Source: Eubacteriales bacterium (GTDB lineage Bacteria; Bacillota; Clostridia; Oscillospirales; CAG-272). From it: a stretch of DNA of 64,000 nucleotides. A model generated the notes under the pieces. That model saw nothing but the letters and a program-made list of their open reading frames with translations. It did no database searches and was not told the DNA's origin. The stretch covers positions 3,879-67,878 of the forward strand of contig JAZRRX010000058.1 of assembly GCA_045651165.1 (NCBI GenBank), given 5' to 3'. The position numbers and the translations under genes are program-made. Positions 32,465 to 63,687 of this stretch are shown here, piece by piece (position 1 is the first letter of the stretch; each line of letters starts with the position of its first letter).

Positions 32465-32688
32465 GTTTCAAATTTTGATTTATAGAGATGTTAGTTTTAT
32501 TGAACAACGGACGTACACGGTGCGCCCCTACGGTGTTTGTGCGTCAAATATCGCAAATTAGTAGCCATTTCGTTTACAATTTGGCTATTATATGGCTTTA
32601 AAAATTACTAATCTCTTTGTAGGGGCGCACCGTGTGCGTCCGCTTCATAGGCAAACTAACTTTTAAACTTCTCGACAAATCCCAATTT
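32465..32688 (+). mobile_element. Non-autonomous element copy A: conserved outer termini enclosing a GTAG-REP doublet
   Basis: Left GTTTCAAATTTTGATTT, right AAATCCCAATTT; REPs 32508-32531 and 32619-32642 (23/24 inverted); about 95% identical to 63464-63687. Confidence 0.8.
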
Positions 32689-32704
32689 ATATTTATCATC
32701 AAAC

Positions 32705-32733
32705 AAAAAGCCCACACGAAACTGTGTGGGCTT
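32705..32733 (-). terminator. Terminator of the pot operon
   Basis: AAGCCCACAC-GAAACT-GTGTGGGCTT with an A tract. Confidence 0.7.
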
Positions 32734-32737
32734 GAGT

Positions 32738-34105
32738 TTATTTAGCTGATTGTTTTGCTTTTTTGCGCTCTCTATCTCTATCGCGATAGAACTTTGAACG
32801 CTTTTTCTTAATGTATGTGGTGTAAATGGCAAATCCCAATACTCCAACAATTATAACAAAGCTTGTTATGTGAATCCATGCTTCAGTTGAATTTTCTGTC
32901 TTCAAAGATTCCCAAAGCTCATTTACGTGCTTTTGAATATCGACGTTTTCATCTTTATAGTAGTCTTCATAAGCAAGGTCATAGGGATAAATTTCCTTAT
33001 AATCTTCTTTAGTTGTACCATAAAGAATTTCATAAGCATCGATAATGCAATTATCTTCGTCATCGTAAATGCTATAGTTGTAATCGAGCATTTCTTGATA
33101 GTATTCGCTATTTTGTACCGCTTTGTTTGGAGATGCGTAACCGATGTAAAGTGCATTTGCAGTTGCCGCCTCTTCACTTATCATATAGTTGATATATTCG
33201 TGTGCAATTTCGGGATGCTTTGATGTCACCGGAATACACATTGCGTCAACGAAATAGTTTGTGCCTTCACTTGGGTAGTAGAAACGAAGGTCGTTGTTAT
33301 CCGCTGCCATTGTCAAGAAGTCACCTGCAAAATAGGAGGCAATATAAGCGGATGCACTCTTCATTTTATTGAAGATTTCATCGTTTACGTAACCTTGAAG
33401 AATGGGCTTTTGTTCTTTTAAAAGTTCAAGAGCAGCAGTCCAATCTGCAGGATTTGACGAGTTAATATCAATTCCTAATTTAAACATTGCAGTTGCAAAT
33501 GCATCGCGGGGGTTATTAAACTGAAGGATTTTTCCTGAATATTTTTTATTCCAAAGAAGATCCCAGCTTTCATTTTCAACATCTTCGTTCTTAACAAATT
33601 CAGAGTTATAGATGACACCAACCATACCATAGGTATAAGGCACACTGTACTTGTTCTCTTGGTCATAAGGAAGATTCTTGAAATCGTCACTAATGTTGCT
33701 GTAATTAGTCAAAATTTCATAATTAAGAGGCAAAAGCATATCATTGCCAATCATTTTTTGAATCATATAGTCTGAAGGAATGACAATGTCATAAGCCACA
33801 GCACTATTTGAAAGCTTTGCGTACATATCTTCGTTTGTAGCGTATGTAGAGTAATTAACTTTTACATAGACTTGATATTTATCTGCAAGATTTTCATTGA
33901 AATACTTTTCAAATTCCGCATTTACGTCGATAAGACCACACTCTTCATCATATTCGTCTGAAATGTATTCGCCCCAGTTATAAACGTTGAGGCTGATTGT
34001 TTCATACTTTTTGTTGCTGTTGTTTTCAACGCCTTCGGGTTCATCACAAGAGCAGAGAAGAAGGGCAAATGCCAATACAATAAGGAATAAAAATTTAATT
34101 TTCAT
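32738..34105 (-). CDS. potD: Spermidine/putrescine ABC transporter substrate-binding protein with an extra C-terminal TM helix
   Basis: LNVYNWGEYI, YDIVIPSDYMIQKM, PYTYGMVG, EGTNYFVDAMCIP; lipobox LLCSC. Confidence 0.85.
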   Translation of the reverse strand: MKIKFLFLIVLAFALLLCSCDEPEGVENNSNKKYETISLNVYNWGEYISDEYDEECGLIDVNAEFEKYFNENLADKYQVYVKVNYSTYATNEDMYAKLSNSAVAYDIVIPSDYMIQKMIGNDMLLPLNYEILTNYSNISDDFKNLPYDQENKYSVPYTYGMVGVIYNSEFVKNEDVENESWDLLWNKKYSGKILQFNNPRDAFATAMFKLGIDINSSNPADWTAALELLKEQKPILQGYVNDEIFNKMKSASAYIASYFAGDFLTMAADNNDLRFYYPSEGTNYFVDAMCIPVTSKHPEIAHEYINYMISEEAATANALYIGYASPNKAVQNSEYYQEMLDYNYSIYDDEDNCIIDAYEILYGTTKEDYKEIYPYDLAYEDYYKDENVDIQKHVNELWESLKTENSTEAWIHITSFVIIVGVLGFAIYTTYIKKKRSKFYRDRDRERKKAKQSAK

Positions 34106-34929
34106 TACTTTCTACCCCCTTTTCTCGCGCGATTTTCCGTTTTCTTGAAGCTCTTGATATTCGAAAGGATAAGAAGTGTAAATACAGTTACGATAATGAG
34201 TGTTGAAAGAGCATACATATCTGGTTTAACTGTCTTCTTAGTCATCGAATAGATGTGAAGAGGAAGTGTTTGGAAATTAGAGGGACTGACGAAATACGAA
34301 ATAACGAAGTCGTCAAGGGAAAGTGTGAATGCCATAACGGAACCCGAAATTACACCGGGCATAATGTTGGGGAGCTTAACCTTAAAGAATGCCTGCATAG
34401 GAGTACATCCAAGGTCGAGAGCTGCCTCTGAAAGAGAATTTCCAAGTTCATTGATACGAGGAAGAACGTTTAAAATTACATATGGCAAGCAAAAAGTAAC
34501 GTGTGCGATAAGCATTGCGAAGAAGCCGATGCTATCGTAATCCGCTATCTTGAAAATAGCAACCACTGCCGCAAAGAAGAGCATGAATGAAACACCGGTT
34601 ACGATATCGGGATTCATCATTGGTACATTGGTAACGCTATTTACCACTTTTTTGAACCATTTGCTTCTCATTTTATATATACCTTCAGCCGCTGCAGTGC
34701 CAATCACTGTGGAGATAAGCGCTGATGATATCGCAAGAATCAATGTGTTACGAAGGGCAATAAACGCATCTTCATCTTTAAAGAGCTTTAAGTACCAATC
34801 AAAACTGAATCCTGTGAAGTTTGCGGTGCTCTCACTTGCATTGAATGAGAAGAAAATGAGAGTGAGAATTGGTATATAGAGTATTGCAAAGATAATGCAA
34901 AGGTATATTCTTGATGCGTATTTTTTCAT
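34105..34929 (-). CDS. potC: Spermidine/putrescine ABC transporter permease
   Basis: LYIPIL, PDIVTG, EAALDLG, AFTLSLDDFVIS. Confidence 0.9.
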   Translation of the reverse strand: MKKYASRIYLCIIFAILYIPILTLIFFSFNASESTANFTGFSFDWYLKLFKDEDAFIALRNTLILAISSALISTVIGTAAAEGIYKMRSKWFKKVVNSVTNVPMMNPDIVTGVSFMLFFAAVVAIFKIADYDSIGFFAMLIAHVTFCLPYVILNVLPRINELGNSLSEAALDLGCTPMQAFFKVKLPNIMPGVISGSVMAFTLSLDDFVISYFVSPSNFQTLPLHIYSMTKKTVKPDMYALSTLIIVTVFTLLILSNIKSFKKTENRARKGGRK

Positions 34930-35738
34930 GGAATGATACCTCCTTCACTATCCTCGGTGAAATAGTTCATAACACCAAGTGAAATAAGGATGAGTACCAT
35001 CATTACAAGTGAGATTGCTGCTCCCACATTATATGAGCCGGTTACAAACTGACGCTCAATTGTGTCACCGATAAGTTCAAATGTACCTCCACCGAGCTTT
35101 TGGGAAATATAGAAGGTGGAAATTGAAGGTACGAATACCATTGTTACACCCGAGATAATGCCCGAAAGTGAGAGGGGGAGAATTACCTTTGTTAAGGTTG
35201 TGAAGGTGTTGCAACCAAGGTCGCTTGCAACCTCCCACATATTTTTGTCTATCTTTGATACACAAGTATAAATGGGAAGGACCATGTAGGGAAGGAAGTC
35301 ATATACCATACCGAATATAACTGCACCCTTTGTTCCTACAATATGTAAGTTAGTATTGAGTAGCGTGTTTAAAAATCCACCATCGTCAAGAATAGCCATT
35401 ATGGAGTAAGTTCTTATAAGAAGGTTTGTCCACATGGGGAGCATAAGAAGCATAATGTAAATCTTCTGATGCTTGGGGTTGCTTCTTGCGATTATGTATG
35501 CCAATGGATAGCCGATAAGAAGGCAGATAAATGTCGCTATTACTGAAAGCTCTATTGAAAGTCCGAATATTGAAACGTAATCTTTAAGTGACTTCACATT
35601 TTCAAGGGTAAATGCACCCTCAGGATCAGTGAAAGCATAAGCGATAACGATTATCAATGGAAGAACAATAAATAGTACTGCCCAAACAATATGGGGGAAC
35701 GCCGCAATAGAGCTCATAAATGACTTTTTATTTTTCAT
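34926..35738 (-). CDS. potB: Spermidine/putrescine ABC transporter permease
   Basis: LPMWTNLLIRTY, LPYMVLPIY, EVASDLG, VFVPSISTF. Confidence 0.9.
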   Translation of the reverse strand: MKNKKSFMSSIAAFPHIVWAVLFIVLPLIIVIAYAFTDPEGAFTLENVKSLKDYVSIFGLSIELSVIATFICLLIGYPLAYIIARSNPKHQKIYIMLLMLPMWTNLLIRTYSIMAILDDGGFLNTLLNTNLHIVGTKGAVIFGMVYDFLPYMVLPIYTCVSKIDKNMWEVASDLGCNTFTTLTKVILPLSLSGIISGVTMVFVPSISTFYISQKLGGGTFELIGDTIERQFVTGSYNVGAAISLVMMVLILISLGVMNYFTEDSEGGIIP

Positions 35739-35811
35739 TATTTATGACCATAACCTCAAAGAGGTTTCCTTTGTTTCGGAATTGCAGTTTTGAGTTAACA
35801 ATTAAACTCAA

Positions 35812-36978
35812 TTAAAATTCTTCAGCTGCTTCTGCATCAGAAAGCATATCAAGTTCATCAGAGAAGGAGGAGTAGTCGCCAAACATACCAGAATATTTAG
35901 ATTTCTTCATAATATGTATAGCATCTGGTTCGATATAAAGACCAATGAATTGTTCGGGAGCAACATAGTCAGTTGACTGAATCATCCACTTAAAGCCTTT
36001 AATGTCCACGATTATCTCATAGTGAACGCCCTTAAAGGTAACTGCTGAAACTTGACCTGTGAGCATACCCTTTTCGGGTTCAACAACGTCAACGTCCTCA
36101 GGACGAACAACAACGTCAACCTGCTCATTCTTTTCAAATCCCTTGTCAAGACAACTGAATGTATGTCCTGCAAAGCGAACATTGTAGTCAGAGAGCATAA
36201 CGCCGTCAATAATGTTCGATTCGCCGATAAAGTCAGCAACAAAAGCGTTTTTGGGTTCGTTGTAGATATCTGTGGGAGTACCTATCTGCTGAATTTCACC
36301 ATCTGCCATAACAACTATTGTGTCTGACATTGAAAGTGCTTCTTCTTGGTCATGAGTAACGTAAATGAACGTAATGCCGATGCTCTGTTGAATATTTTTA
36401 AGTTCAACCTGCATATCCTTACGGAGCTTTAAGTCAAGCGCGCCCAAGGGTTCATCCAAAAGAAGAACACGGGGGTGAGAAATAAGCGCACGGGCAATCG
36501 CAACTCTCTGTTGCTGACCACCTGACATTGTGCTAACGCTTTTGTTTTCAAAGCCTGAAAGCGCAACCATTTTAAGCATTTCGGTTACTTTTTCTCTTAT
36601 TTCATCTTCAGGTAATTTTTTAAGTCTTAAGGGGAACGCGATATTTTCATATACGTTCAAATGTGGGAAAAGCGCGTATTTTTGGAACACGGTGTTGATG
36701 TGTCTTTTGTTTGGGGGGAGGTCGTTGATTTCCTTGCCTTCAAAAAGCACTTTGCCCTCATCTGGGGTTTCAAAACCGCCAATAATACGAAGAGTTGTAG
36801 TCTTGCCACATCCTGACGGGCCAAGGAGAGTTACAAACTCTTTGTCTCTTATATAAAGGTTGATGTCGTGAAGGACTGTTTCACCATCATACTGTTTGGA
36901 TATGTTCTTCAAATCAACCACTTTGGTGTCGGTATAAGTTACCTTTGGTTTAATAATATTGCCGTTATTTTCTTTCAT
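35812..36978 (-). CDS. potA: Spermidine/putrescine ABC transporter ATP-binding protein
   Basis: [44 protein letters not shown]. Confidence 0.93.
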
Positions 36979-37054
36979 TCCGCATAATACTCCTAACACA
37001 AAAATATTTTGGGGAATGGGGAGTGTAAGCACACTCTTATCCATCATAGCAAAT

Positions 37055-37083
37055 ATTGTAGCAGATATGAAGAAAAAATGCAA
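37055..37083 (-). promoter_or_regulatory. SigA-type promoter for potABCD
   Basis: Minus strand TTGCAT, 17 bp, TGcTACAAT. Confidence 0.55.
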
Positions 37084-37195
37084 TAGGTTTGAGAAAAAAA
37101 GTCGAAAAAAATCGGCAAAAATCAAGAAAAATTATGATTATCCGTTGGCAACTTGAATGAAATCAAAAAAACACCATTATTACTCGTTTAATCTC

Positions 37196-37810
37196 TTAAA
37201 TTCTCTCGAAATCTCTTATTTTGATGTTAAAAATGAAGCATTTTGCGAAGAAAATAAGGCAAAAAATGAACATAGGAACTCCATTTGATATTTTGAGCAT
37301 CATATATACCGAAAGTAACCATAAAGAAAGCAGAGTTGAAAATGACGTGATGCGAAGAATTTTATCCGCCGTATCGAGTGAAAAAAGAAGACAGAGAGTA
37401 CATTTTAAAATTCTTCCACCGTCAAGAGATGTAAGCGGAATTAGGTTGAAAATAGACAGGCAAAGGGAGAGAATTGAAAAGGGAAAGAGAAAGCTTTGGC
37501 AGAAGGGGATAGTCAGATTGCTCAATGCAATTTTATAGGTAAATGCAAATCCTACAAAGCCCACCAAGGGGCCACCGAGTGCAAATATCAATTCGTCCAC
37601 ATATGAGGGATCTTTTTCAGTTTTTATTCGACCTCCAAATAGGGATAATTCAAAACTTTTTATCTTTATTTTTAATATTTTTGCGCACAAAATATGGCCA
37701 ATTTCGTGCAAGAGGACGGCGCAGATAAGTGGAACAATAAACGGTGTGTTTGAAAGCATTAAAAATATAATCCAAATAATACTGAACGGTGATATTTTTA
37801 TTTTTTTCAT
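37196..37810 (-). CDS. Site-2 (M50) intramembrane protease, SpoIVFB-like
   Basis: LHEIGH, ALGGP, FNLIPLTSLDGGRIL; GGAG RBS. Confidence 0.85.
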   Translation of the reverse strand: MKKIKISPFSIIWIIFLMLSNTPFIVPLICAVLLHEIGHILCAKILKIKIKSFELSLFGGRIKTEKDPSYVDELIFALGGPLVGFVGFAFTYKIALSNLTIPFCQSFLFPFSILSLCLSIFNLIPLTSLDGGRILKCTLCLLFSLDTADKILRITSFSTLLSLWLLSVYMMLKISNGVPMFIFCLIFFAKCFIFNIKIRDFERI

Positions 37811-37976
37811 ATAGTCTCCTTGTTGAATTTATTAAAAGATTAGTTTTGTAAAATGGGGAACTCATTCATAAATTCCAAATTATCAAAACACTATCGTAGA
37901 TATAATAATTCTATTTAGAAAACCCCAAACATATATTTGTAATGAAAATATTTTCGGTAAATATTTTTAAAAACTA

Positions 37977-38005
37977 TTGACAATTTGAAATAAAAGTAAT
38001 ATAAT
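37977..38005 (+). promoter_or_regulatory. SigA promoter for the tRNA
   Basis: TTGACA, 17 bp, TATAAT. Confidence 0.85.
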
Positions 38006-38022
38006 AATTAAGTCGCGTAAGC

Positions 38023-38099
38023 GGGCCATTAGCTCAGTTGGTTAGAGCTACCGGCTCATAACCGGTCGGTCTTAGGTTCGAGTCCTAAATGGCCCACCA
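38023..38099 (+). tRNA. tRNA with CAT anticodon, most likely tRNA-Ile2 (lysidine-modified)
   Basis: Acceptor GGGCCAT/ATGGCCC, TAGCTCAGTTGGTTAGAGC, ACCGG-CTCATAA-CCGGT, GGTTCGAGTCC, CCA; G1-C72 pair argues against fMet; resembles Firmicutes Ile2. Confidence 0.9.
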
Positions 38100-38100
38100 G

Positions 38101-38133
38101 AAAAAAGCACTTGCATTTTGCAGGTGCTTTTTT
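38101..38133 (+). terminator. Terminator after the tRNA
   Basis: AAAAAAGCACTTGCA / TGCAGGTGCTTTTTT. Confidence 0.8.
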
Positions 38134-38256
38134 CATTTGTATAAATTTAATGTTTTAATGGTGTCAAAAATAGCTATTTGTGTTCGAATTTGTTGACAAA
38201 AGCGCGAAAATTGGCTATAATAGTTTATAATGATGTTTTGCCGGGGAGATAAATAT

Positions 38257-38712
38257 ATGAAGTGGTTACTTGACTTATTAAGAAATCCGTATTTAATTAC
38301 TGTGCTTGTGGCATTTTTTGCATCACAGACGATAAAATTGTTTACACACGCTATTGTATATAAAAAATTTGATATAAAACGATGGTTTGGTGACGGCGGT
38401 ATGCCAAGCTCACACACAGCCACCGTTTCATCAATGGCATTTTTTACGGGTATGACTTGCGGATTTGCAAGCTTTGAATTTGGCATTTCAATGCTTTTGT
38501 GTATGATTGTTTGCCGAGATGCCGTTGGTGTAAGAAACGAAACGGGTAAACAAGCCGTAATACTTAATGAACTTAAAAAGTTGATTGAAGGCAAAGAAGC
38601 TTCTCAAATCAAATTGAAGGAATTCGTTGGACATAATCCTATTCAGGTGTTATTTGGCGTTATTCTTGGATTTCTTGTTGCTTGCTTTATGCATTTGGTG
38701 GTGTTTGTATGA
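38257..38712 (+). CDS. Divergent PAP2 family (DUF212) membrane protein
   Basis: GGMPSSHTA, RDAVGVRNETGKQA, LKEFVGHNPIQV. Confidence 0.88.
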   Translation: MKWLLDLLRNPYLITVLVAFFASQTIKLFTHAIVYKKFDIKRWFGDGGMPSSHTATVSSMAFFTGMTCGFASFEFGISMLLCMIVCRDAVGVRNETGKQAVILNELKKLIEGKEASQIKLKEFVGHNPIQVLFGVILGFLVACFMHLVVFV

Positions 38713-39431
38713 CTAAAAGAACAAAGATTATTTTAATTTCATTGGCAATTATTCTCTTGCTTTCTCTTGTGTGTGGATTATTATATTTCTTTTTAGAATA
38801 TTTACCCGAAAAGAAAAGAAAAGAGGAGCTTATCCGTGCGGCGCAGGAGTATTACAATCAAAAGCTTTTGCTCTATGCGGAAGAAAATAAAGCATATTCT
38901 GATTATGAGGTGGATATTGCATTTATCGGTGACAGCTTGACTGACGGATATGATGTTGAAAAATATTATCCAGAATATAAAGTTGAAAATCGTGGAATTG
39001 GTGGCGATACCACGCACGGACTTTTGGCTCGACTTGACGTTTCTGTTTATCAACTTAAGCCGAAAGTTATAGTAATGCTTATTGGTGCAAACAATTTTGA
39101 TACTATGCTTGATGATTATGAGCAGATAATTATAGGCATTAAAGAAAATTTGCCTGAAACGAAGCTCGTTATTTGCTCGTTGACATCAATGGGTGGAGAA
39201 CTTTGGGGAAAGAACAATCACAAGGCCATATTAAATAACGTTCAAATAAAGGCTTATGCCGAAAAACACGAATGTCCTTACATTGATCTTTATACTGCTT
39301 TATTAAATATCGAAACAAATGAGATATACGAGCATTATACGACTGACGGTGGACATTTGACTGTGGCAGGATACGAAGTTTTCACATCTTGCGTTAAGCC
39401 TGTTGTTGATGAAATATTGAAAAACAAATGA
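38709..39431 (+). CDS. Membrane-anchored SGNH/GDSL hydrolase
   Basis: FIGDSLT, NRGIGGDTT, LIGAN, DGGHLT; ATGA overlap with the upstream gene. Confidence 0.85.
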   Translation: MTKRTKIILISLAIILLLSLVCGLLYFFLEYLPEKKRKEELIRAAQEYYNQKLLLYAEENKAYSDYEVDIAFIGDSLTDGYDVEKYYPEYKVENRGIGGDTTHGLLARLDVSVYQLKPKVIVMLIGANNFDTMLDDYEQIIIGIKENLPETKLVICSLTSMGGELWGKNNHKAILNNVQIKAYAEKHECPYIDLYTALLNIETNEIYEHYTTDGGHLTVAGYEVFTSCVKPVVDEILKNK

Positions 39432-39535
39432 ACAAAATTTATCACAATTTATCTAGTGATGTTGATTGACAAATTTGATAATATGTGGTAGAATATATGG
39501 GTGTAAATTGCAAACAATATTATTGAGGTGCACAT

Positions 39536-39877
39536 ATGAAAAAAATCATTTTAATCGTTTCTGTTGTGCTTGTTTTGGCTCTCTTGGTGTCATGTTATAT
39601 TACCGAGGAGGAGCAGAATATGGAAGGCGCTAAAATGACTGCTGTGATTAAAAACATTGCAGATAAAATTGAGGTTGAGGTAATTGAGGGTGATTACAAC
39701 GTATCTGGAATATATTGGGTAAATATTTCGTCCGATACGGTGTTTACAGATGAAAACAACGTTCGTTTATCTCTTTCTGATTTGAATGTTGGAGATATTA
39801 TAGAAATCACCTATAGTGGTCAGGTGGCTTTGAGCTACCCACCACAAATATCTGCAAGAAAAATTCAAATTAAATAA
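39536..39877 (+). CDS. Small lipoprotein (DUF3221/YobA-like OB-fold candidate)
   Basis: Lipobox LLVSC, GDIIEITYSGQVALSYPPQISARKI; TTGACA-17-TAGAAT promoter upstream. Confidence 0.65.
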   Translation: MKKIILIVSVVLVLALLVSCYITEEEQNMEGAKMTAVIKNIADKIEVEVIEGDYNVSGIYWVNISSDTVFTDENNVRLSLSDLNVGDIIEITYSGQVALSYPPQISARKIQIK

Positions 39878-39909
39878 AAAAATACGGAGCAATTTGCTCC
39901 GTATTTTTT
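39876..39909. terminator. Bidirectional terminator
   Basis: AAAAAATACGGAGCA-ATT-TGCTCCGTATTTTTT. Confidence 0.8.
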
Positions 39910-39910
39910 A

Positions 39911-40717: not shown

Positions 40718-40940
40718 ACTAAACCCTCCTTAAGAATACTATATACTCAACAAAATAATACATATTAAGCATACAAAAATATGATAGCATAAAAAAGTGA
40801 TTTTGTCAATATCGATAAAAAATTTATTAAATAATAACGAAAAAATATGACTAAAGTGTCAAAAAGTGTGCAAAATTACATTTTGAGGGGTGCGAGTGCT
40901 AAAAATCAATTGTAATTGAGAAAAAAATCTTAAAAAACTC

Positions 40941-40969
40941 TTGACAAAGTCATAGAAAAGTGGTAAATT
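40941..40969 (+). promoter_or_regulatory. SigA promoter of the dnaK operon
   Basis: TTGACA, 17 bp, TGgTAAATT. Confidence 0.75.
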
Positions 40970-40980
40970 AGTATCAGAAA

Positions 40981-41007: not shown

Positions 41008-41031
41008 AAATTTAGAAAGTGAGGAAGTAAA

Positions 41032-50766: not shown

Positions 50767-50927
50767 AAATTGGGATTTAGCTGGGATTTATGATTTTTAA
50801 AACGTAGGGCGGGGGCTTGCTCCCACCGTCCAAAAAGTTAGTAAAATTAAGGGCGGCGGGAGCAAGCCCCCGCCCTACGATGTTTGTGTGATAATTTTAA
50901 TCTTCTCGACAAATCAAAATTTGAAAC
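50767..50927 (-). mobile_element. Non-autonomous element copy B (inverted), with a different REP doublet
   Basis: AAATTGGGATTT at 50767 and AAATCAAAATTTGAAAC at 50911-50927 (reverse complements of the A/D ends); REPs 50804-50828 and 50854-50878 (24/25 inverted). Confidence 0.75.
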
Positions 50928-50995
50928 AAAAGATAGAAAACGTTACACTTTTTTGAAAATTTATTGACTTATATTAATGAAAGGAAGTGAATTTT

Positions 50996-52621
50996 ATGAA
51001 AAAAAGATTTGTTTTACTAATTACTCTTGCTTTAATATTGGTTGTGGCTTGTGTAATGATATTTGTAATATTTAAGCACGAGCATATCGTTGATGACAAA
51101 TGGTCGTACAACGAAGAATTGCATTGGAAAAACATTACTTGCACTTGGGATACGTGCAAATTTGATATTGTAACCGAAGAGCATTGTGATAATGATGGCA
51201 ACTTATTCTGCGATGTTTGTGGATTTGAGATGTCAGTGCCTGCTTGGGATATCAAATGGATATATAGTGCAACTCATCACTGGTGGTATCCTACATTTGA
51301 AGGTGGAATTGCACTTGGTGTCGTTTATGGATATGGGGAACACGTAAATATTGATGAGGATATGAAATGTGATGTTTGTGGATATGATTTTTCCACAAAT
51401 GTTACGCCTCTTGGAGTGTTTTTTAGCACCTTGCCCGGCGTTGAGTGGCTTGGAACACTTAAAGCAGATGAGGTTGCTGAAATAAAAATGATAGAAGAAA
51501 ACAGTGGAGTTGCGCCCGGTAGCTTGAAATGTATTTCAAATTCAACAAATCCATCTGCCATAGCAAGACTTTTGAGTGAATTCCGCTCGCTTGGGGTAAT
51601 TAATTTCAAGGGCGACCATCCATTTGTACCGGGCGGTCAGATATTGACCGTTGAATTCGTTTTGAAGGACGGCACTAAAAAATCATTTTCGTTTAATAAT
51701 GAGATTTATTCCGATAGCAATGGCAATCATTATTTTACTATGGGTGAAATTCCCACATTTCACGACGTGCCTGAATACACAATGCATTACGGATTTGTTT
51801 CCTACACGGATAAGTGTGAGATTTGGTATGAAGGTGATGATTTTGAACCATATTTTCTTTGTAATATCCCTATAGACAAACTTGAATTTGTAAGCTTGGA
51901 ATACGAGTTGCCTGCAGTGGTTTCTGAATATCCCTATTTTATCAAAACTGAATTTGGAACTTTAGAATTTTATAGTAACGATATATTCTTCATTGTTGGA
52001 GAAGGTCAATATTATGAACTTGTCGGCAAAAATCTTGACGAATTGATTATGGAGGCAACGGTTGGTTATTCCGTTACGATGAATGACGAGGATTGGTTGT
52101 ACGAGGATTTACAGTCGAGATACAAAGCAGGTGAAACTGTTTCAGTTAAAATCGGAATTGCCTATGATGTGGGATATATGTTTTTCGTGAATGGTGAGAG
52201 AATAATGCCTGAAGAACATGTTGGCAATCCGTATTGGGAATTTGTCTTTACAATGCCCGAAAGTGATGTTGTAATAGATTTTAAAACCTATAAAGGATTT
52301 TTGCCCGAAAACTATGATGCTTTGTATGAAGCGTTTTGGACGAATAATTTGGATGCGGAATACGTTCACATAAGACATTATTACGGTGAATTTGATAGCG
52401 GTGCAATAGTTGCTATGATTGATTCGGGCTTTTATATGCAAGTTATTGGTAAGGATATAGTTACAGGAGTAACTATACATTATTCTGATAGTAATCGCAT
52501 TACCGTTTTGTACGAGGGGAAATTTTATTCCTTGCTTGAGGCATATCAAAAAGGATATCTAACTGCTGAGGATATTCAGACGATTGCTGATTTACATCAT
52601 AATCAAATAATTCCAGAATAA
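50996..52621 (+). CDS. Exported hypothetical protein with Cys/His-rich repeats and a divergent InlB-B-repeat-like domain
   Basis: N-terminal TM/signal; two W..N..HW...EH...D..CDVCG(F/Y) units; YKAGETVSV...FTMPESDVVI. Confidence 0.7.
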   Translation: MKKRFVLLITLALILVVACVMIFVIFKHEHIVDDKWSYNEELHWKNITCTWDTCKFDIVTEEHCDNDGNLFCDVCGFEMSVPAWDIKWIYSATHHWWYPTFEGGIALGVVYGYGEHVNIDEDMKCDVCGYDFSTNVTPLGVFFSTLPGVEWLGTLKADEVAEIKMIEENSGVAPGSLKCISNSTNPSAIARLLSEFRSLGVINFKGDHPFVPGGQILTVEFVLKDGTKKSFSFNNEIYSDSNGNHYFTMGEIPTFHDVPEYTMHYGFVSYTDKCEIWYEGDDFEPYFLCNIPIDKLEFVSLEYELPAVVSEYPYFIKTEFGTLEFYSNDIFFIVGEGQYYELVGKNLDELIMEATVGYSVTMNDEDWLYEDLQSRYKAGETVSVKIGIAYDVGYMFFVNGERIMPEEHVGNPYWEFVFTMPESDVVIDFKTYKGFLPENYDALYEAFWTNNLDAEYVHIRHYYGEFDSGAIVAMIDSGFYMQVIGKDIVTGVTIHYSDSNRITVLYEGKFYSLLEAYQKGYLTAEDIQTIADLHHNQIIPE

Positions 52622-52847: not shown

Positions 52848-53009
52848 TTCAAATTTTGATTTATCGGGGAGTTAGTTTAGTTGAATAGCGGACGCGCAAT
52901 GCGCGCCCCTACACTATACTGGATTTAAATTCGATAATGTAGGGGCGGTCACTGGCCGCCCGTTTCCGAAGGAAAACTAACTTTTTATCTCTCCCATAAA
53001 CCCCAATTT
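52848..53009 (+). mobile_element. Non-autonomous element copy C with two non-identical REPs
   Basis: TTCAAATTTTGATTT left end, AAACCCCAATTT right end; REPs 52889-52912 and 52939-52962. Confidence 0.75.
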
Positions 53010-56166: not shown

Positions 56167-56298
56167 CGTTTAGTTCCTTTCGAAATTACTTGATTTTAGT
56201 AATATGTTATGTAAAAAGAATGTAATTTGTCAAATTCAAAGCTATTGTATCATAAAAAATACAATAAGTAAATAGAAAAAATAAATTTTGCACACACT

Positions 56299-56331
56299 TT
56301 GACAATATTTGCTTGTGTTTGGAGATATAAT
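56299..56331 (+). promoter_or_regulatory. spoIIG-type SigA promoter with an over-long spacer
   Basis: TTGACA (56299-56304), 21 bp, TATAAT (56326-56331); TTTGACA is 6/7 to the Spo0A box TTCGNCA. Confidence 0.7.
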
Positions 56332-56380
56332 GAGTAAGCTAAGTTCATAAATTAGGGTTTGTTTAGAAATTGGAGAAAAA

Positions 56381-57241
56381 ATGGTAGTTTACGGTGATTT
56401 GCTTTTTCTTATCAATTTTAGCATGGATTTTTTGTGCTTTTACATATCGTGTTTGCTATTGCATCAGAAATTGCCATTGTTTCGCATGTGCTTGTCAAGT
56501 TTTATGGGTGGCGTGTATTCCGTGATAGCATTATTTATTCCGATTAAAGGGATTAAAGCAACGGCAATTGACATATTGGTGCTCGTTTTGATGTGTTTGA
56601 CAGTTTATTTAAGAAAGAATGTAAAAGTTGGAAAGATACTGAAGGGTATTTTTCTATACTTTTTTGTGTCAGCACTCTTGGGTGGACTTATGACCTCACT
56701 TTTTTCTATGTTCAATCGAATAGAACTTTTGGCAAAGAATACAGGGCTCGAAGAGGGAATTGACGTATGGATTTTTGCCCTGCTTGCGATAGCAGGTTCG
56801 ATTTTCACTTTAAAGGGTGGAAAAATATTTAGAAGTTCTTCCTCCAAGCGCACAGCATCTCTTGTGATAGAAAGTGATATAGGACAAAAAGAATTGCACG
56901 CTTTAGTAGATAGTGGGAATCTTGCCATAGACCCCATAAGTGGCAAGTCGGTAATTTTTGTTAGTGTAGAAAAATGCAAGAATATTGTCGATAATGCTTT
57001 GTATGACTTTGTAAAAAATAATAGAAATATAGATGATATTCCAATAACGATTTTGTCGAAAATACGAATGATACCAACGCGTGCCGTGTCTGGAGAAACG
57101 CTTTTACCTGCCGTAAGATTTAAAAATGTCAGCATAAAATGTGGCAAGAATAAAAAAGATATTGACGTTTACATAGGCCTTGTAAATGGTGAAAAGTTGG
57201 GGGAATATGACGCGATAATATCGGACGAAACTATTGCATAA
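56381..57241 (+). CDS. spoIIGA: Sigma-E processing aspartic peptidase
   Basis: VYGDLLFLINFSMD, five TM helices, catalytic LVDSGNL..DP; position upstream of sigE. Confidence 0.92.
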   Translation: MVVYGDLLFLINFSMDFLCFYISCLLLHQKLPLFRMCLSSFMGGVYSVIALFIPIKGIKATAIDILVLVLMCLTVYLRKNVKVGKILKGIFLYFFVSALLGGLMTSLFSMFNRIELLAKNTGLEEGIDVWIFALLAIAGSIFTLKGGKIFRSSSSKRTASLVIESDIGQKELHALVDSGNLAIDPISGKSVIFVSVEKCKNIVDNALYDFVKNNRNIDDIPITILSKIRMIPTRAVSGETLLPAVRFKNVSIKCGKNKKDIDVYIGLVNGEKLGEYDAIISDETIA

Positions 57242-57313
57242 AATTCAAAATACATTAATAATACATAAAAAATATTTCAAAATAATAATATAAAAATTTA
57301 AATGGAGAATCTT

Positions 57314-58087
57314 ATGGCAAAGAAAAATAAATTCATATTATTCAACAGAGGGATTTTTTGTTGCATTGGTGATTGCTTTAAAAAAATAATATTCAAAATC
57401 AAACTACTTATAGCAAAAATTCTTTCGCGTGGCGCGGTAAAAGGGGTATATTACGTCAATGGTCCGGATGTTTTGCCAGCTCCACTTTCGAAAGAGGAAG
57501 AAACAAAATATCTTGAAGAGCTACCCTATAATGACCGTGCGCGTGATATTCTTATTGAACACAATCTGCGCCTTGTTGTTTATATAGCTAAAAAATTTGA
57601 AAGCACGGGAATTTGCATTGAGGACTTGGTTTCGATTGGCACAATAGGTCTTATAAAGGGCATAAACACATTTCGCGCAGATAAAAACATCAAGCTTGCC
57701 ACCTATGCCTCGCGTTGTATTGAAAACGAGATACTTATGTACATAAGAAAGACATCACAGAGTAAGTGCGAGGTGTCAATTGACGAGCCACTCAACGTCG
57801 ATTGGGATGGAAACGAGCTTTTGCTATCCGACGTGCTTGGCAACGAGGAGGACAACGTTGCATACGAGCTTGAAAAGGAGGAGGAGCGCAGAATAATACG
57901 CGAAGCGGTTGAGCGTCTTGATGAGCGCGAGCGCCTGATAATTGAGATGCGATTTGGACTTTTTGGAAGAAAAGAAATGACACAAAAGGATGTGGCACAA
58001 GAGCTTGGAATATCGCAAAGTTACATATCACGTCTTGAAAAAAAGATAATTTCTCAACTTAGAGAAGAAATAGAAAATAAAATTTGA
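57314..58087 (+). CDS. sigE: Sporulation sigma factor sigma-E (pro-form)
   Basis: [66 protein letters not shown]; GGAG RBS before ATG 57314. Confidence 0.93.
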
Positions 58088-58180
58088 AAAAATTTAAAAA
58101 AACTATTGCAAAATGGAGTTAATTGTGTTATAATCATATGCAATGTGAATAATTTTGCTAAAAAGTGAGGTGTAAATAAA

Positions 58181-58390
58181 ATGAAGACAGGTATCCATCC
58201 TAAGTATGAAGAAGTAACAATTAAGTGTGCTTGTGGTGAAACAGTTACAACAAAGTCCACAAAGGGCGGAGATGTAAGCGTTGAAATTTGCTCTAAGTGT
58301 CATCCTTTCTTTACTGGTAAGCAGAAATTCGTTGATGCTGGCGGTAGAGTTGATAAATTCAAGAAGAGATTGCAGGCTAGCGCAAAATAA
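58181..58390 (+). CDS. rpmE: 50S ribosomal protein L31 (zinc-binding type)
   Basis: [29 protein letters not shown]. Confidence 0.97.
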
Positions 58391-58417
58391 TTTTAAATTA
58401 GTACATTTCGCAACTAC

Positions 58418-58450
58418 GGGCAAGCTATGTGTTTTTGCACATACTTGCCC
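58418..58450 (+). terminator. Hairpin after rpmE
   Basis: GGGCAAG-c-TATGTG / CACATA-CTTGCCC; weak U tract. Confidence 0.5.
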
Positions 58451-58474
58451 TTATTGTGTTTTTGAGGTGGTTTT

Positions 58475-59269
58475 ATGGCAAAAAAGTCCTTACCTATTGC
58501 GGTTTTTGACTCAGGAATTGGCGGTGTAAGTGTTTTAAAAGAGCTTATACGCTTACTTCCAAATGAAAATTTCATATATTTTGGCGATACCGCAAATGCG
58601 CCCTATGGTACAAAGAGCGCAGAGAAGGTAAGAGAAATGACTTTTTCCGTCTATGAGAGCCTCAAGGCAGAGGGAATAAAGGCTTTCGTTATCGCGTGCA
58701 ATACGGCAACAAGTGTTGCGGTGGCATCTTTACGCGAAAAATATCCCGAGGATATAATTATTGGGGTTGAGCCCGCCCTAAAACCTGCCGTTAAATGTTG
58801 TGAGCGCCCAACGGTTGCAGTGCTTGCCACTCCTTTAACATTAAAGGAAGAAAAATTTGCCCATTTGCTTGAAAAATTCGGTACGGATGCGCGCGTAATT
58901 CCTTTTGCGTGCCCGGGCCTTGTTGAGTTTGTTGAGCGTGGAGAGATAGGTGGCAATGCCTTGCATACATTTCTTGAGGAGTTACTTTCCCCTTTAAAAG
59001 AGGAAAAACTTGATGCCGTAGTGCTCGGATGTACACATTATCCATTTGTTAAAGCAGAAATAACCTCGGTGTTGGAAAAAAACGTGCAAATTTTTGACGG
59101 AAGCGAGGGTACTGCGCGTGAAACACGTCGTCGTCTTGAAGAAGCAGAACTTTTGTCTGAAACTGACCACAAAGGAAGCGTAATTTTTGTTGATTCATCA
59201 TATCCTAACGAAAGAGATTCAAGTAAATCCTTGCTTGTGAAATTTGGAGGTGAATATATATGCAGTTGA
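58475..59269 (+). CDS. murI: Glutamate racemase
   Basis: FDSGIGG, DTANAPYG, VIACNTA, VLGCTHYP. Confidence 0.96.
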   Translation: MAKKSLPIAVFDSGIGGVSVLKELIRLLPNENFIYFGDTANAPYGTKSAEKVREMTFSVYESLKAEGIKAFVIACNTATSVAVASLREKYPEDIIIGVEPALKPAVKCCERPTVAVLATPLTLKEEKFAHLLEKFGTDARVIPFACPGLVEFVERGEIGGNALHTFLEELLSPLKEEKLDAVVLGCTHYPFVKAEITSVLEKNVQIFDGSEGTARETRRRLEEAELLSETDHKGSVIFVDSSYPNERDSSKSLLVKFGGEYICS

Positions 59270-60576
59270 ATTTTAATGATGCCAAGGAACACATTTCAAA
59301 GGCTGTTCTTGTTGGCATAGTTACAAGAGATACAAACAGTGAAGAGGTTGAAAAGGAGCTTGACGAGTTGGCTCGTCTTCTTGACACCGCGGGTGGCGAG
59401 GAGGTTGCTCGTCTTGTGCAGAACAAGGAAACTCCAGATCCTAGAACAGTAATTGGTAGTGGTAAGATTTGGGAACTTTCCGAACTTTGCCGAAATAATG
59501 GAGTGAAGCTCGTTGTCTTTGATGCGGAGCTTTCACCCTCGCAAATTAGAAATATTGAGGACGATTTGGGTGACGATATTAGCGTTATTGACCGTTCGAT
59601 GCTTATTTTGGACATTTTTGCTCTCCACGCTACTACGGGTGAGGGAAAATTGCAGGTGGAACTTGCACAGTTGCGCTATACTGCACCCCGTCTTATTGGT
59701 AAGGGAACTCAGCTTTCCCGTCTTGGTGGTGGTATTGGTACACGAGGCCCAGGTGAAAGTAAACTTGAAAGCGATAGACGTCATATGAAGCGCCGTATTG
59801 TTGCGCTTGAAAGTGAACTTGAAGAGCTTGAAAAGAACAGAATGACTATGCGTGCAAGCCGTGACAAGAGCCAAATTCCTCAAATTGCGATTGTTGGCTA
59901 CACAAATGCAGGCAAGTCAACCTTGCTTAACACACTTACTGACGCGGGCATTTTGGCAGAGAACAAGCTCTTTGCAACACTTGACCCGACTACAAGAAAA
60001 TTGAAATTGCCCTGTGGTGAGACGGTTTTGCTAACCGACACCGTTGGATTTATAAGAAAATTGCCCCACCACCTTGTAAAAGCGTTTAAATCAACGCTTG
60101 ATGAGGCGGTTTATGCCGATATTTTGATGATTGTGATTGATGCGCACGACGACGAGGCAAAAGCACAGCTTGAGGTTACTGAAACCCTTCTTGCCGAGCT
60201 TGGTGCGGCAGGAAAGCCAACAATCTACGTTTATAATAAGTGTGACCTCGGTGTTTCCTCCGAGTTGCCTTCATACGTCGCTAATAACGAAGATCCCAAC
60301 CACATTGTTTGTGCAATTTCTGCCAAGAGTGGACAGGGAATTGACACTTTGCTCCAAAAGGTAGAGGATATTATCCATCAGGGTAAGAGTAAAGTTACAT
60401 TTGTTATCCCTAACTCCGAGCAGGGCGCACTCAATATTCTTTATAAAAACGCAACAGTTGAGAGCGTTGACTACGGATATGAGGGTGTAACTGTTATCGC
60501 AACAGTTGATCAAAAAGTCCGCGGAATGCTCAAAAAGTACGATATAAACAAACCCCAAGAGGTTGAGGAGTTTTAA
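59260..60576 (+). CDS. hflX: Ribosome-rescue GTPase HflX
   Basis: IGSGK, GIGTRGPGESKLE, VGYTNAGKS, LFATLDPT, DTVGFI, NKCD. Confidence 0.96.
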   Translation: MQLNFNDAKEHISKAVLVGIVTRDTNSEEVEKELDELARLLDTAGGEEVARLVQNKETPDPRTVIGSGKIWELSELCRNNGVKLVVFDAELSPSQIRNIEDDLGDDISVIDRSMLILDIFALHATTGEGKLQVELAQLRYTAPRLIGKGTQLSRLGGGIGTRGPGESKLESDRRHMKRRIVALESELEELEKNRMTMRASRDKSQIPQIAIVGYTNAGKSTLLNTLTDAGILAENKLFATLDPTTRKLKLPCGETVLLTDTVGFIRKLPHHLVKAFKSTLDEAVYADILMIVIDAHDDEAKAQLEVTETLLAELGAAGKPTIYVYNKCDLGVSSELPSYVANNEDPNHIVCAISAKSGQGIDTLLQKVEDIIHQGKSKVTFVIPNSEQGALNILYKNATVESVDYGYEGVTVIATVDQKVRGMLKKYDINKPQEVEEF

Positions 60577-60599
60577 ATTTTTTGAAAGGAGCTAAAGTT

Positions 60600-61229
60600 A
60601 TGTCAGAAGAAAAAGTATATATAACGATAAAGGGCAGGGCTGAGGCTCGTTTTGAGGAGAAAAAGTCGGTGTTCATTGGATATGCTTCTCATGTTGAGAG
60701 TGAGGAGGAGGCACTTGCCTTCATTAAGGAAATCAAGGAAAAGCACCGTGATGCCACTCACAATTGCTATGGCTACGTTATGAAGGGTGGAATTTTGTGC
60801 CGCTACAGTGATGACGGTGAGCCACAGGGAACTGCAGGCAAGCCCATTCTTGATATGCTTAAGAAAAGTGGAGTTGACGATGTTTGCGTTGTTGTTACTC
60901 GTTATTTCGGGGGCACGTTGCTCGGCACGGGTGGACTTGTACACGCATATTCCCAGGGTGCAAAGATGGCTGTTGAGTCGGCAGGAGTTGCTCGATTTGA
61001 AAATTACGTTGTTTTGACTGTATCTTGCACATATTCTGACTATCAAAGAATCGGACTTGAGCTTGAAAGAATTGATGCAATCATCGATTCAACGGACTAT
61101 TCGGATAATGTTGCCGTGACGTTTGCCGTAAAAGAGAAATTTGCAGACGAAATTGCAAGAAAAATTTCCGAAATTAGCGCGGGCAAGAGCATAGCAACCA
61201 AACTTTGCGAAAGATTTGATGCGAAATGA
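60600..61229 (+). CDS. yigZ: YigZ/IMPACT family protein
   Basis: EEKKSVF, HRDATHNC, DDGEPQGTAG, VTRYFGGTLLGTGGL. Confidence 0.92.
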   Translation: MSEEKVYITIKGRAEARFEEKKSVFIGYASHVESEEEALAFIKEIKEKHRDATHNCYGYVMKGGILCRYSDDGEPQGTAGKPILDMLKKSGVDDVCVVVTRYFGGTLLGTGGLVHAYSQGAKMAVESAGVARFENYVVLTVSCTYSDYQRIGLELERIDAIIDSTDYSDNVAVTFAVKEKFADEIARKISEISAGKSIATKLCERFDAK

Positions 61230-61263
61230 TATAAGGTGGGAGTTGTTCCCACCTTATATCATT
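61225..61263 (+). terminator. Long hairpin overlapping the yigZ stop
   Basis: Perfect 17-bp stem AATGATATAAGGTGGGA / TCCCACCTTATATCATT. Confidence 0.7.
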
Positions 61264-61364
61264 TGTGCAAAAAACAAAATCCTCGAAATCTATTGAAATG
61301 CATAAAAATTTGTGATAAAATTAAACCAATAAACGCCGACGGGCTTACGTGAAAGTGGAAAGTT

Positions 61365-63266
61365 ATGAAAAAGAAAGTCTTAATTTGTATTATCGTTTGC
61401 ATGATAATGCTTGTTAGTGTGGTTTTGGGTGTTATGCTTATCCCACCCGCTAATAATACAACAGTTGCTACCACTAAGCATTTGGAGGATAATCTTATTG
61501 AAATACAAACGTGGTATAACGATAAAATGTCTTTGGTAAATCAAAATTTAATAAATTATGCTTCTTCCGTTTCTGGCATATCCAATATTAACGTAACGAG
61601 TAGTAAATTTAGATTTGGAGAAGATTTTGGTTTTTATGAGTGCCATTATACAATAATATTTAGTTGTATAGTAGAAGGGGTATCTTGCAATGGAGAAGCA
61701 AGAGCGTTTTTGAAATATAAGGATACCAATATTTCGTGGTTTCATTTTGAAATATATAGAGTTTCAGATTATAAAACTATTGTAGAATATTATGATGATA
61801 GTTATGATAAAATTATTGAAGATTACTATAAATCATTAGTAGATCCAGCCTATACTTCGCAAGGAAACCATACTACAACCTCAACTACAACCACTCAAAC
61901 GACAATAACTACCACTACAAGTAGTAATGGTAATGTCACGGAGCCTAATCCGGACGAAAACCATCAGAATGAAACAAACAATGTGACATGGGATGATTGT
62001 CCTATAGACATAACAGGTGGTATTTCCGGGTCTTCATATTCGGAAATTATTAAAATAAAAGTAAATAACATTTCTTCTAAAGATATTGACTCCGCAAAAC
62101 TTATGTTTGTGTTTACTCATACCAATTATGACAATTCACAGCAACAAATCACGGGATTCTTTACTTTAGATACAATTTGGGCAAGTGATAGCATAAGTCA
62201 AAACATATCTGGAGAAAACTACAATTTTTTGAGAACTTCAATCTATCCCGTGTGTATTTATTTCAAGGATGGAACAGTATGGGGATCATCTGGTGCTACA
62301 TACGAGGAGATAATTGGAAATTCGCTTGCTTTTGAAATAAAGCATTTTGCATTAGATGATGAGAACCATCAGGATTCTAACACAAATAACGATTCTAACT
62401 CATCTAACAATCAAAACAACATTGAAGATTTGAGTTATATTGTAAATAGTGTTTGTGATAATTATAACAGTGGAGAAACTGCTTATGGTGGCAAAGTATA
62501 TGCTACTATTAATAGTTCGACTTCTATTACAATAACTCATAATATTCCGAACACTCTATCTTTTGATGAGCAATCTAATGTTGAGGAAATGGAAGACATT
62601 CTTGCACGCCTATTTTCTGAAATATTAAATGAAGAATTTCCAGAGTATATAATGGTATATGTAGAAACATCGGTTACTTATACCTCTACTCCAAATATCA
62701 ATACTGATTCATCTGATAAGGTAAATAATATCAGTGAATTACAATCATTAGTGGAAGAATTATGCTTGGAGTATAATAGCGATTTTACTTACTATAATGG
62801 CAATATTTCAGTAATAGTGAATTCAGGCACGTCAATTACGATACAACATATTATAATGGATAATATTGATCCGGATGATGAAGGTGTGGTAGCGTGGTTA
62901 GAGGAAGGCTTGATTGTTTATTTTGAAGAGGCTTTTGAAGCTGAGGGCTTCCCTCAAAAAATTGAAGTTACGGTGAAATCTGAATATACTATTGCAGAAA
63001 AACCGCAATGGATATCAGCAGAGGAACTTTACATATATTATAATTTATCGGTTTACTGGGCAGGGGCAGAAATATGGATTTGGGAAAGTGATAATTATGG
63101 AACTGCTACGTCATCATATACATTGACAGGTTCACCAGAAAGTGTTTTTATAGAAAATCAAGTTTATGATTGTGTTTATATGGAAAATATTATTTCAGTA
63201 AAATATCTTAATGGGATTTTGTTTGGGTATGATGATTTAATTAAAGCGGGCATTATTTCTGAATAA
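61365..63266 (+). CDS. AT-rich multidomain exported hypothetical protein
   Basis: N-terminal TM helix, Thr-rich linker, YFKDGTVW beta-sandwich-like domain, tandem about 100-aa duplicated domain; TTGAAA-17-TAAAAT promoter upstream. Confidence 0.72.
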   Translation: MKKKVLICIIVCMIMLVSVVLGVMLIPPANNTTVATTKHLEDNLIEIQTWYNDKMSLVNQNLINYASSVSGISNINVTSSKFRFGEDFGFYECHYTIIFSCIVEGVSCNGEARAFLKYKDTNISWFHFEIYRVSDYKTIVEYYDDSYDKIIEDYYKSLVDPAYTSQGNHTTTSTTTTQTTITTTTSSNGNVTEPNPDENHQNETNNVTWDDCPIDITGGISGSSYSEIIKIKVNNISSKDIDSAKLMFVFTHTNYDNSQQQITGFFTLDTIWASDSISQNISGENYNFLRTSIYPVCIYFKDGTVWGSSGATYEEIIGNSLAFEIKHFALDDENHQDSNTNNDSNSSNNQNNIEDLSYIVNSVCDNYNSGETAYGGKVYATINSSTSITITHNIPNTLSFDEQSNVEEMEDILARLFSEILNEEFPEYIMVYVETSVTYTSTPNINTDSSDKVNNISELQSLVEELCLEYNSDFTYYNGNISVIVNSGTSITIQHIIMDNIDPDDEGVVAWLEEGLIVYFEEAFEAEGFPQKIEVTVKSEYTIAEKPQWISAEELYIYYNLSVYWAGAEIWIWESDNYGTATSSYTLTGSPESVFIENQVYDCVYMENIISVKYLNGILFGYDDLIKAGIISE

Positions 63267-63286
63267 ATATTGTTAAAGATATTTTT

Positions 63287-63310
63287 GGAGCGCTTCGGCG
63301 CTCCTTTTTT
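63287..63310 (+). terminator. Intrinsic terminator
   Basis: GGAGCGC-TTCG-GCGCTCC followed by T6. Confidence 0.88.
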
Positions 63311-63322
63311 GTGGTTGGTATT

Positions 63323-63460
63323 TGAACGGACGCACGCGTTATTAGGACTCCTTCCACCACTTCGTGGTCCCCCTCCCTTAAAGATGGAGGCTTAGGTTAG
63401 TTTGGGTTGGGATAGGTTATTGGTTATATTTGGCTTTTGTAGGGGAGGATATTATCCTCC
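63323..63460. repeat. Mosaic of REP-like hairpins
   Basis: Truncated CGGACGCAC half-REP, CCAC-TTC-GTGG and CCTCC/GGAGG hairpins, solo GTAGGGGAGGATATTATCCTCC at 63439-63460. Confidence 0.6.
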
Positions 63461-63463
63461 TGT

Positions 63464-63687
63464 GTTTCAAATTTTGATTTGTGGGGATGTTAGTTTTATT
63501 GAACAACGGACGCACACGGTGCGCCCCTACGGTGTTTGTGCGTCAAATATCGCAAATTAGTATCCATTTCGTTTACAATTTGGCTATTATATGGCTTTAA
63601 AAATTACTAATGTCTTTGTAGGGGCGCACTGTGTGCGTCCGCTTCATAGGCAAACTAACTTTTAAACTTCCCGCTAAATCCCAATTT
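63464..63687 (+). mobile_element. Non-autonomous element copy D
   Basis: 10 mismatches to copy A over 220 bp; REPs 63507-63530 and 63618-63641. Confidence 0.8.

Follow-up and report, generated by a model that had tools for sequence, protein, structure and literature searches.

Fixed, unlike ends and changing interiors in a palindromic repeat family of ruminant-gut Clostridia

What is copied when the same two ends enclose different hairpins at different places? The question is raised by four short palindromic elements, A to D, in the stretch of DNA analysed here (the window, 64,000 nt of contig JAZRRX010000058.1 in assembly GCA_045651165.1). The family to which they belong has its hosts among uncultured ruminant-gut Clostridia. 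Each of the four carries two GTAG hairpins in inverted arrangement, which recalls the doublets of repetitive extragenic palindromes (REPs) known as REPINs. A first-pass annotation had described them as a shell of fixed polarity with swappable REP cargo, and had proposed one machinery for moving the shell and another for exchanging the REPs. The account that we prefer, at roughly even confidence, is that A to D are members of a genus-specific, shell-defined, non-autonomous and non-coding palindromic family, a hybrid between a MITE (a miniature transposable element with inverted repeats) and a REPIN, in which interiors are exchanged between copies and REP doublets travel as passengers linked to REP-associated tyrosine transposases (RAYTs).

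The copied unit and its two ends

A 15-nt left end (L15, TTCAAATTTTGATTT) and a 12-nt right end (R12, AAAYCCCAATTT) delimit the copied unit: copies are alike out to these two sequences and their flanks diverge exactly there. In the window L15 was observed four times against 0.18 expected and R12 four times against 0.08, and none of 100 shuffles reached four for either. The four elements are where the annotation had placed them. Element A (32467..32688, plus strand; 222 bp, class 1) lies 18 nt past the potD terminator and comprises L15 (32467..32481, plus), the scaffold GTTAGTTTTATTGAACAA, an inward doublet of type-1 REPs with an 87-nt AT-rich spacer, and R12 (AAATCCCAATTT; 32677..32688, plus). 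The left hairpin of the doublet has its GTAG on the minus strand (32508..32531), and the right one, GTAGGGGCGCACCGTGTGCGTCCG, lies on the plus strand (32619..32642). Element D (63466..63687, plus; 222 bp, class 1) is 95.5% identical to A, with 10 of 222 positions different, and has L15 at 63466-63480, REPs at 63507-63530 and 63618-63641 and R12 at 63676-63687. Two unlike inward REP hairpins (52889-52912 and 52939-52962) distinguish element C (52848..53009, plus; 162 bp, class 3), whose L15 is at 52848-52862 and whose R12 (AAACCCCAATTT) is at 52998-53009. Element B (50767..50925, minus; 159 bp, class 2) holds an outward doublet of type-2 REPs (hairpins 50804-50828 and 50854-50878) between R12 at 50767-50778 and L15 at 50911-50925. 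The hairpin coordinates thus agree with the orientations given earlier, GTAG pointing outward in B and inward in the other three. Element A is predicted to fold into a single end-to-end hairpin (-45.7 kcal/mol, z -7.7), and B folds with a z of -7.5. When empty alleles of A were sought in public metagenome runs (Logan), the contigs broke at the element and gave boundaries and depth only; the repeat boundaries fell at 32466/7 and 32688-90, with a depth excess of 25-70x. A known RNA family was rejected as the identity of the elements, since above the Rfam gathering score the window contains only two tRNAs and an L10 leader, the long element classes giving sub-threshold noise. A lone GTAG-footed hairpin, GTAGGGGAGGATATTATCCTCCT, lies at 63439-63461, 4 nt outside the left end of D, and is unlike the cargo REPs.

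The ends are near-invariant, occur strictly as one of each type and are accompanied by no target duplication. L15 agrees with the reverse complement of R12 at 10/12 positions, AAATT[TT/GG]GATTT, with a fixed TT-versus-GG difference, and inside each end the arm continues with a degenerate RTCGGGGAG, which makes the shell a terminal inverted repeat of imperfect match. In calling the shell asymmetric, the annotation overstated the matter. Likewise, CTTCTCGACAAATC, which it listed as common to A and B, is present in both but is simply the inner repeat, seen in the right end of A and the left end of B. The extra base that it included before TTC in the left end did not hold up: that base is not conserved, the left flank is T-rich only, and TTC is inseparable from the element. 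Instead it is the right end that usually continues, with A, T and C following R12 in 36/44, 31/44 and 22/44 elements, respectively. The fixed polarity is firm, as all 38 unambiguous pairs in this genome combine one TT-type with one GG-type end and never two alike, and the reported lack of a target-site duplication also stands (direct repeats of k = 2-5 at all offsets in 44 elements, p > 0.16). When the two ends are read side by side, a small perfect palindrome, TCAAA-T-TTTGA, is seen in the left one and is absent from the right. Just inside each end, 9 nt are hypervariable: within cargo classes, divergence is 3.5% in the ends, 27% in the inner 9+9 nt and 16% in the cargo (Wilcoxon p = 4e-4). 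Base-pairing was rejected as the upkeep of this inner zone, as no covariation was found between the two 9-nt repeats, the own pairs of an element being no more complementary than cross pairs (p = 0.77). Among metagenome relatives, a locus on JAEIGA010947877.1 (591-835) has two left-type ends (TTCAAATTTTGATTTGTCGGGGAG ... CTCCCCTATAAATCAAAATTTGAA), and the right-end variants AAACTGCAATTT and AAATTGCAATTT occur on other contigs, so that the TT/GG asymmetry is lineage-specific.

The genome itself (G000) is a 1.6-Mb assembly of 68 contigs with 38% G+C, the window being part of its contig C58. It contains 44-47 complete elements, and halves at contig ends number about 24 left and 36 right, so that the scan for both termini proposed in the annotation yields roughly 80 elements and most contig breaks lie inside elements (about 60 contig ends). 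The elements are non-coding and span 150-570 bp, with sizes clustered at 148-167, 209-255, 324-357 and 480-574 bp. Of 43 elements, 23 have an intrinsic terminator no more than about 40 nt away; left ends adjoin one 12 times and right ends 14 times, without evident orientation bias. Exact L15 occurs in 5-112 copies in each of 19 of the 23 species of the genus, in no copies in a basal clade of four species, and in 0-1 copies in 18 outgroup genomes. A 24-mer that includes the inner repeat was found in one of 400 other genomes of the order. No match to the family was found in plasmid, phage and viral collections, and rumen and gut metagenome contigs contain further variants of it.

Interior turnover at resident shells

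Shells that are resident at a locus outlast speciation, and meanwhile their interiors turn over. In the nearest sister species (G018; PotD 94% identical) nine sites are occupied that are also occupied in G000, namely A, B, D and six others, and all nine have the same insertion point and orientation ((1/2)^9 = 0.002). Seven of them hold unrelated cargo, one of the seven being a solo left end in G000 and a full element in G018; another has the class-1 scaffold and spacer with type-4 instead of type-1 REPs, and the last has related cargo. The sister species has a shell with a type-4 REP doublet at the B site and a shell end with different cargo at the D site, both matching G000 in insertion point and orientation. 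The A site, in the spacer between potD and gerA, carries a shell in about 10 species, with the right end always beside the potD terminator and a different interior in each, and is empty in nine species. In the well-supported clade of G010, G009 and G002 the flank adjoining the end is homologous and the cargos are different. New sites receive both ends: at least three sites that are filled in G000 are empty in G018 and lack a left end there, which indicates that colonising a new site brings both ends. One further G018 site retains a relic of about 55 bp only.

The C site is empty in G018. Since the B site is filled there, B and C are not one travelling unit. The gene between them (50987-52621), encoding an accessory exported protein, is poorly conserved (identity <=51% within the genus), and a different lipoprotein-like gene replaces it in the nearest species.

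The interior is modular. At least 10 unrelated interiors were found, including six types of GTAG-REP, inward or outward, and several unrelated GTAG-free palindromes, among them classes of 350 bp, 217-241 bp and 480-560 bp. The long GTAG-free classes predominate among the halves at contig ends, so that roughly half of all elements are without a GTAG hairpin; some of the GTAG-free classes have 6-15 copies. The earlier notion of swappable REP cargo is therefore partly right. Classes 1, 3 and 6, which have a common sub-terminal scaffold and different REP hairpins, and the nine shared sites speak for it, but the shell is not specific to REPs. Interiors also occur inverted relative to the shell (C64-37190 and C34-3839), and in mosaic elements (C49+3256 and C22-3822) classes are joined at microhomologies of 10-20 nt, GACGCGCAAT and CCGTTnCAAAAA..AAGTAAC. 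A palindromic insert of ~77 nt (TAGCGAAGCGGCACGAGGG...CAACACAGTGTGTTG...GCCGCAGCGAGACC) forms a third nesting layer in the loop of REP type-4/5 hairpins or within another hairpin; it was seen in G000 at C38+1405, C62-9863, C50+8293, C49-3617, C22-3822 and C41-33600, and in G018 on C48 and C75.

No empty shells were found in this genome, and six short forms of 43-62 nt across the 23 genus genomes look like internal deletions. There are four solo left ends in G000 (C36, rc 33728; C37, rc 40167; C60:3576-3590; C62:1845-1859) and no solo right ends. The solo left ends continue directly into right-flank-like sequence, with ATC, ATA or GTT followed by a reverse-strand terminator, and at the site of the C60 copy the sister species has a complete element of 480 bp. 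A 7-nt direct repeat, ATTTATC, has one copy across the inner edge of the left end and one across the outer edge of the right end; slippage between them could cause a deletion that leaves a solo left end.

RAYT genes and the movement of shells and interiors

No catalyst is encoded in the window, as had been noted, and three RAYT-like genes are located elsewhere in the genome (C6:15304-15798, C37:54972-55484 and C12:1880-2401). They fit TnpA_REP subclass 2.4 in having NHIH, IWQ and YIHENP, and score 57-62 bits against the NCBIfam model REP_Tyr_transpos, under its cut-off of 80. Each contains an outward GTAG-REP pair that is in frame within the coding sequence and flanks the HUH motif; the pair encodes, for example, VGTGVLDCP ... 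GQSGTPVPT, in which the invariant residues VG and PT correspond to the GTAGG and CCTAC codons. Every inspected RAYT homologue (loci L039-L068 and L108-L187) has such an in-frame outward pair, and by a strict test it is present in 43 of 80 wider homologues from named genomes, including Gemmiger formicilis and Ruminococcus flavefaciens.

The REP cargo is linked to the RAYT repertoire. The embedded hairpin varies between RAYT paralogues and matches genomic REP types: the three genes here carry types 5, 5 and 4, and type 5 is also the most frequent hairpin among the cargos of this genome; the RAYTs of the sister species have types 4 and 6, which match the REP types found in its cargos. Genome-wide, nearly every GTAGGG hairpin has a shell end no more than about 170 bp away, apart mainly from six that lie in RAYT coding sequence. 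This genome has no cognate RAYT for four of its six REP types, among them the hairpins of A and D (type 1), B (type 2) and C (type 3); RAYTs with types 2, 3 and 6 are present in other species. In two species, RAYT genes were seen that are missing exactly the REP-HUH-REP segment (G002:C44, L097 about 2563-2841; G007:C162, L103 about 2090-2391). In G002 the deletion preserves the reading frame, and in G007 the gene is a pseudogene; the loss could be a REP-bounded excision or a palindrome-stimulated deletion.

Under the account we prefer, interiors would be exchanged between copies by recombination or by replication template switching, with the conserved ends and internal microhomologies serving as joints and hairpin extrusion of the long palindromes promoting the exchange. 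We favour inter-copy events of this kind, given that the mosaics are joined at microhomologies and that no dedicated enzyme has come to light. The two dedicated machineries of the annotation are not borne out; the mosaics suggest that ordinary recombination or template switching could exchange interiors. The GTAG-REP doublets would be one kind of passenger, supplied and kept matched by subclass-2.4 RAYT genes that carry the same hairpin pairs. For the spread of whole shells to new sites, a trans-acting enzyme recognising both unlike ends would be needed; the RAYTs probably do not fill this role, since roughly half of the elements that multiply are free of GTAG hairpins.

Several points weigh against this account. 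The perfect homology of 12-15 bp per end is short for RecA-type gene conversion. Searches of insertion sequences, RAYT loci and TnpB gave no candidate for an enzyme acting on the shell ends: no shell ends bound the RAYT genes at 30 loci, and self-BLAST, in assemblies that are incomplete, found no repeat over 600 bp that could be an insertion sequence with these ends, so that the RAYT, tnpA or recombinase gene bounded by the same ends that the annotation hoped for did not appear. TnpB occurs in 4 of the 23 genus genomes, and neither in this one nor in the shell-rich ones. The single-gene tree of PotD is too poorly resolved to tell one gain from several at the potD site, and the attempt to derive a nucleotide-exact target from the empty G018 sites was given up because divergence of the intergenic flanks prevents the ends from being fixed. 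Finally, all the genomes are fragmented metagenome assemblies that break inside repeats, which makes the counts estimates.

In a bolder reading, which we consider rather doubtful, a dedicated system that cuts and rejoins DNA, based on a RAYT or on another enzyme, would act at the two unlike ends. Each shell would be a slot in which interiors are swapped at GATTT| and AATTT|, the family forming a chromosomal 'cassette platform' for non-coding hairpin modules, with the solo left ends as emptied slots and the hypervariable 9 nt as scars of the joints. An explanation by a single machinery seems unlikely to us. It holds that the elements are extended REPINs and that the RAYT, as a single-strand HUH Y1 nuclease, cuts behind each end, at GATTT| on the left and at AATTT| on the right. 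Interior and right end would be excised as a single-stranded circle and reinserted beside the retained left end, the cargo being replaced while site and orientation stay fixed. The unlike ends, the absence of a target duplication and the hairpin-rich substrates would suit chemistry of the IS200/IS605 type, both putative cut sites follow ATTT, and the RAYTs are the only transposase-like genes found. The four solo left ends with right-flank-like sequence adjoining, one of them a full element in the sister species, are what such excision would leave, but they are also explicable by slippage at ATTTATC. The substrate speaks against this enzyme, since the E. coli RAYT is reported to require the GTAG hairpin (Ton-Hoang 2012, PMC3333891; Corneloup 2021, PMC8266576), which about half of the elements lack, including the classes of 6-15 copies. 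Nor does a single machinery readily account for the REP types that have no cognate RAYT in this genome, for the even orientation to neighbouring genes (12 vs 14), or for the left end that new sites gain as well. The shell-less species form a clade mostly without RAYTs, as this reading would expect, but RAYT homologues in other genera occur without any shell. The co-occurrence was rejected as a sign of dependence because the four shell-less species are one clade and thus a single event. A further idea, that the arms of class 5 are decayed RAYT coding sequence and the shell the ends of an ancestral RAYT transposon, was also rejected, as local alignments of arms and interior to the RAYT genes were no better than shuffles (most p > 0.05; one arm of one copy p = 0.007).

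It is very unlikely that the ends are core sites, comparable to attC or the ends of dif modules, at which a tyrosine or serine recombinase swaps interiors. Such cassette exchange would fit swaps that are bounded precisely by the near-invariant 15-nt and 12-nt ends with the next 9 nt hypervariable, as well as the interiors that are inverted relative to the shell, and the left-end palindrome would suit a dimeric DNA-binding protein and explain the polarity. No recombinase gene is linked to the elements, however, and they are single and dispersed rather than in arrays; the attC signature RYYYAAC...GTTRRRY is absent, GTTAG coming first and CTAAC second here, and the mosaic junctions at microhomologies point to recombination that is not site-specific. 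Equally improbable is a classical MITE superfamily, whose inverted-repeat ends would be recognised by a DDE transposase encoded elsewhere or lost from the incomplete assemblies, and in which different cargo at shared sites would mean repeated independent insertion into hot spots just past terminators. The inverted repeat of 12 + 9 bp, the 23/43 elements near terminators, and the metagenome relatives with a fully symmetric element and other right-end variants agree with it. Against it are the lack of a target duplication, the 38/38 heterotypic pairs, the 9/9 shared sites in the same orientation though orientation to terminators is random, the flank homologous right up to the end in the G010/G009/G002 clade, and the failure to find an autonomous copy in plasmids, phages, viral contigs or 38 metagenome contigs, in assemblies that are incomplete. 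An origin from TnpB/IS605 was rejected because TnpB is absent from shell-rich genomes.

Relation to known repeats and significance

The elements resemble REPINs with their RAYTs (Bertels & Rainey 2011, PMC3116915) in having inverted, GTAG-footed, GC-rich hairpin doublets in intergenic positions and cognate RAYT genes in the genome (types 5 and 4). They are unlike REPINs in that the copied unit is not the doublet itself but the doublet plus 40-70 nt on each side, out to fixed unlike termini; the same termini also bound non-REP interiors, and hardly any REP doublet lies outside a shell. GTAG REPs have been listed for Proteobacteria, Cyanobacteria, Chloroflexi and the PVC (Planctomycetes-Verrucomicrobia-Chlamydiae) group and not for Clostridia (Di Nocera 2013, PMC3733652), and the literature searched yielded no account of such a shell, or of GTAG REPs or REPINs from Clostridia. 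TnpA_REP subclass 2.4, or RAYT group 4, has been characterised by long canonical REPs, three G-C foot pairs and REPs in frame within the tnpA_REP gene (Quentin et al. 2018, PMC6006769). These features, together with NHIH, WQ and YIxENP, all apply to the three RAYTs here. In contrast to that subclass, the genomic REP copies sit in a second, shell-bounded repeat and the RAYT genes lack the shell on their flanks. The paired layout of the embedded REPs, and their tracking of the genomic REPs, extend the report of Quentin et al.

Pseudomonas repeats that combine a degenerate GTAG unit with an unrelated stem-loop (Di Nocera 2013, PMC3733652) are similar in joining REP-like and unrelated hairpins. 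Palindrome-associated transposable elements (PATEs), miniatures derived from IS200/IS605, likewise have unlike ends, no target duplication, many hairpins and a Y1 HUH enzyme in the genome; they differ from the present family, whose ends enclose neither TnpA nor TnpB. TnpB is missing from this genome, no conserved target tetranucleotide distinct from the left end is recognisable, and no strand bias is evident. MITEs are also small and non-coding with terminal inverted repeats (here 10/12 plus a degenerate 9 nt), but here there is no target-site duplication and no autonomous insertion sequence with the same ends was found. Integron attC sites differ in that the order here is GTTAG...CTAAC and the elements stand singly at scattered places. 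The combination of conserved terminal modules and a variable middle may be compared with modular repeats such as the pneumococcal BOX (boxA-boxB(n)-boxC) and ERIC with internal inserts. The present family departs from these in its at least 10 unrelated interiors, the strict pairing of unlike ends and the interior replacement at orthologous loci. The documented replacement of interiors at fixed, polarised shells is its distinctive feature, the family being closest to MITEs, REPINs and modular repeats.

To our knowledge, RAYT activity has been demonstrated only in vitro, for the E. coli RAYT, and we know of no settled explanation, after forty years, for the copying of REPs and REPINs or for the coexistence and turnover of several REP types. 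The genus examined here is a natural experiment in this respect, since sister species have, at corresponding loci, one and the same shell around differing hairpin modules. The family also explains the fragmentation of these rumen and gut genome assemblies. As the REP types track the resident RAYT repertoire, and elements with and without GTAG share their ends, three questions become separable and testable: what defines the ends, what moves the whole element and what swaps the interior.

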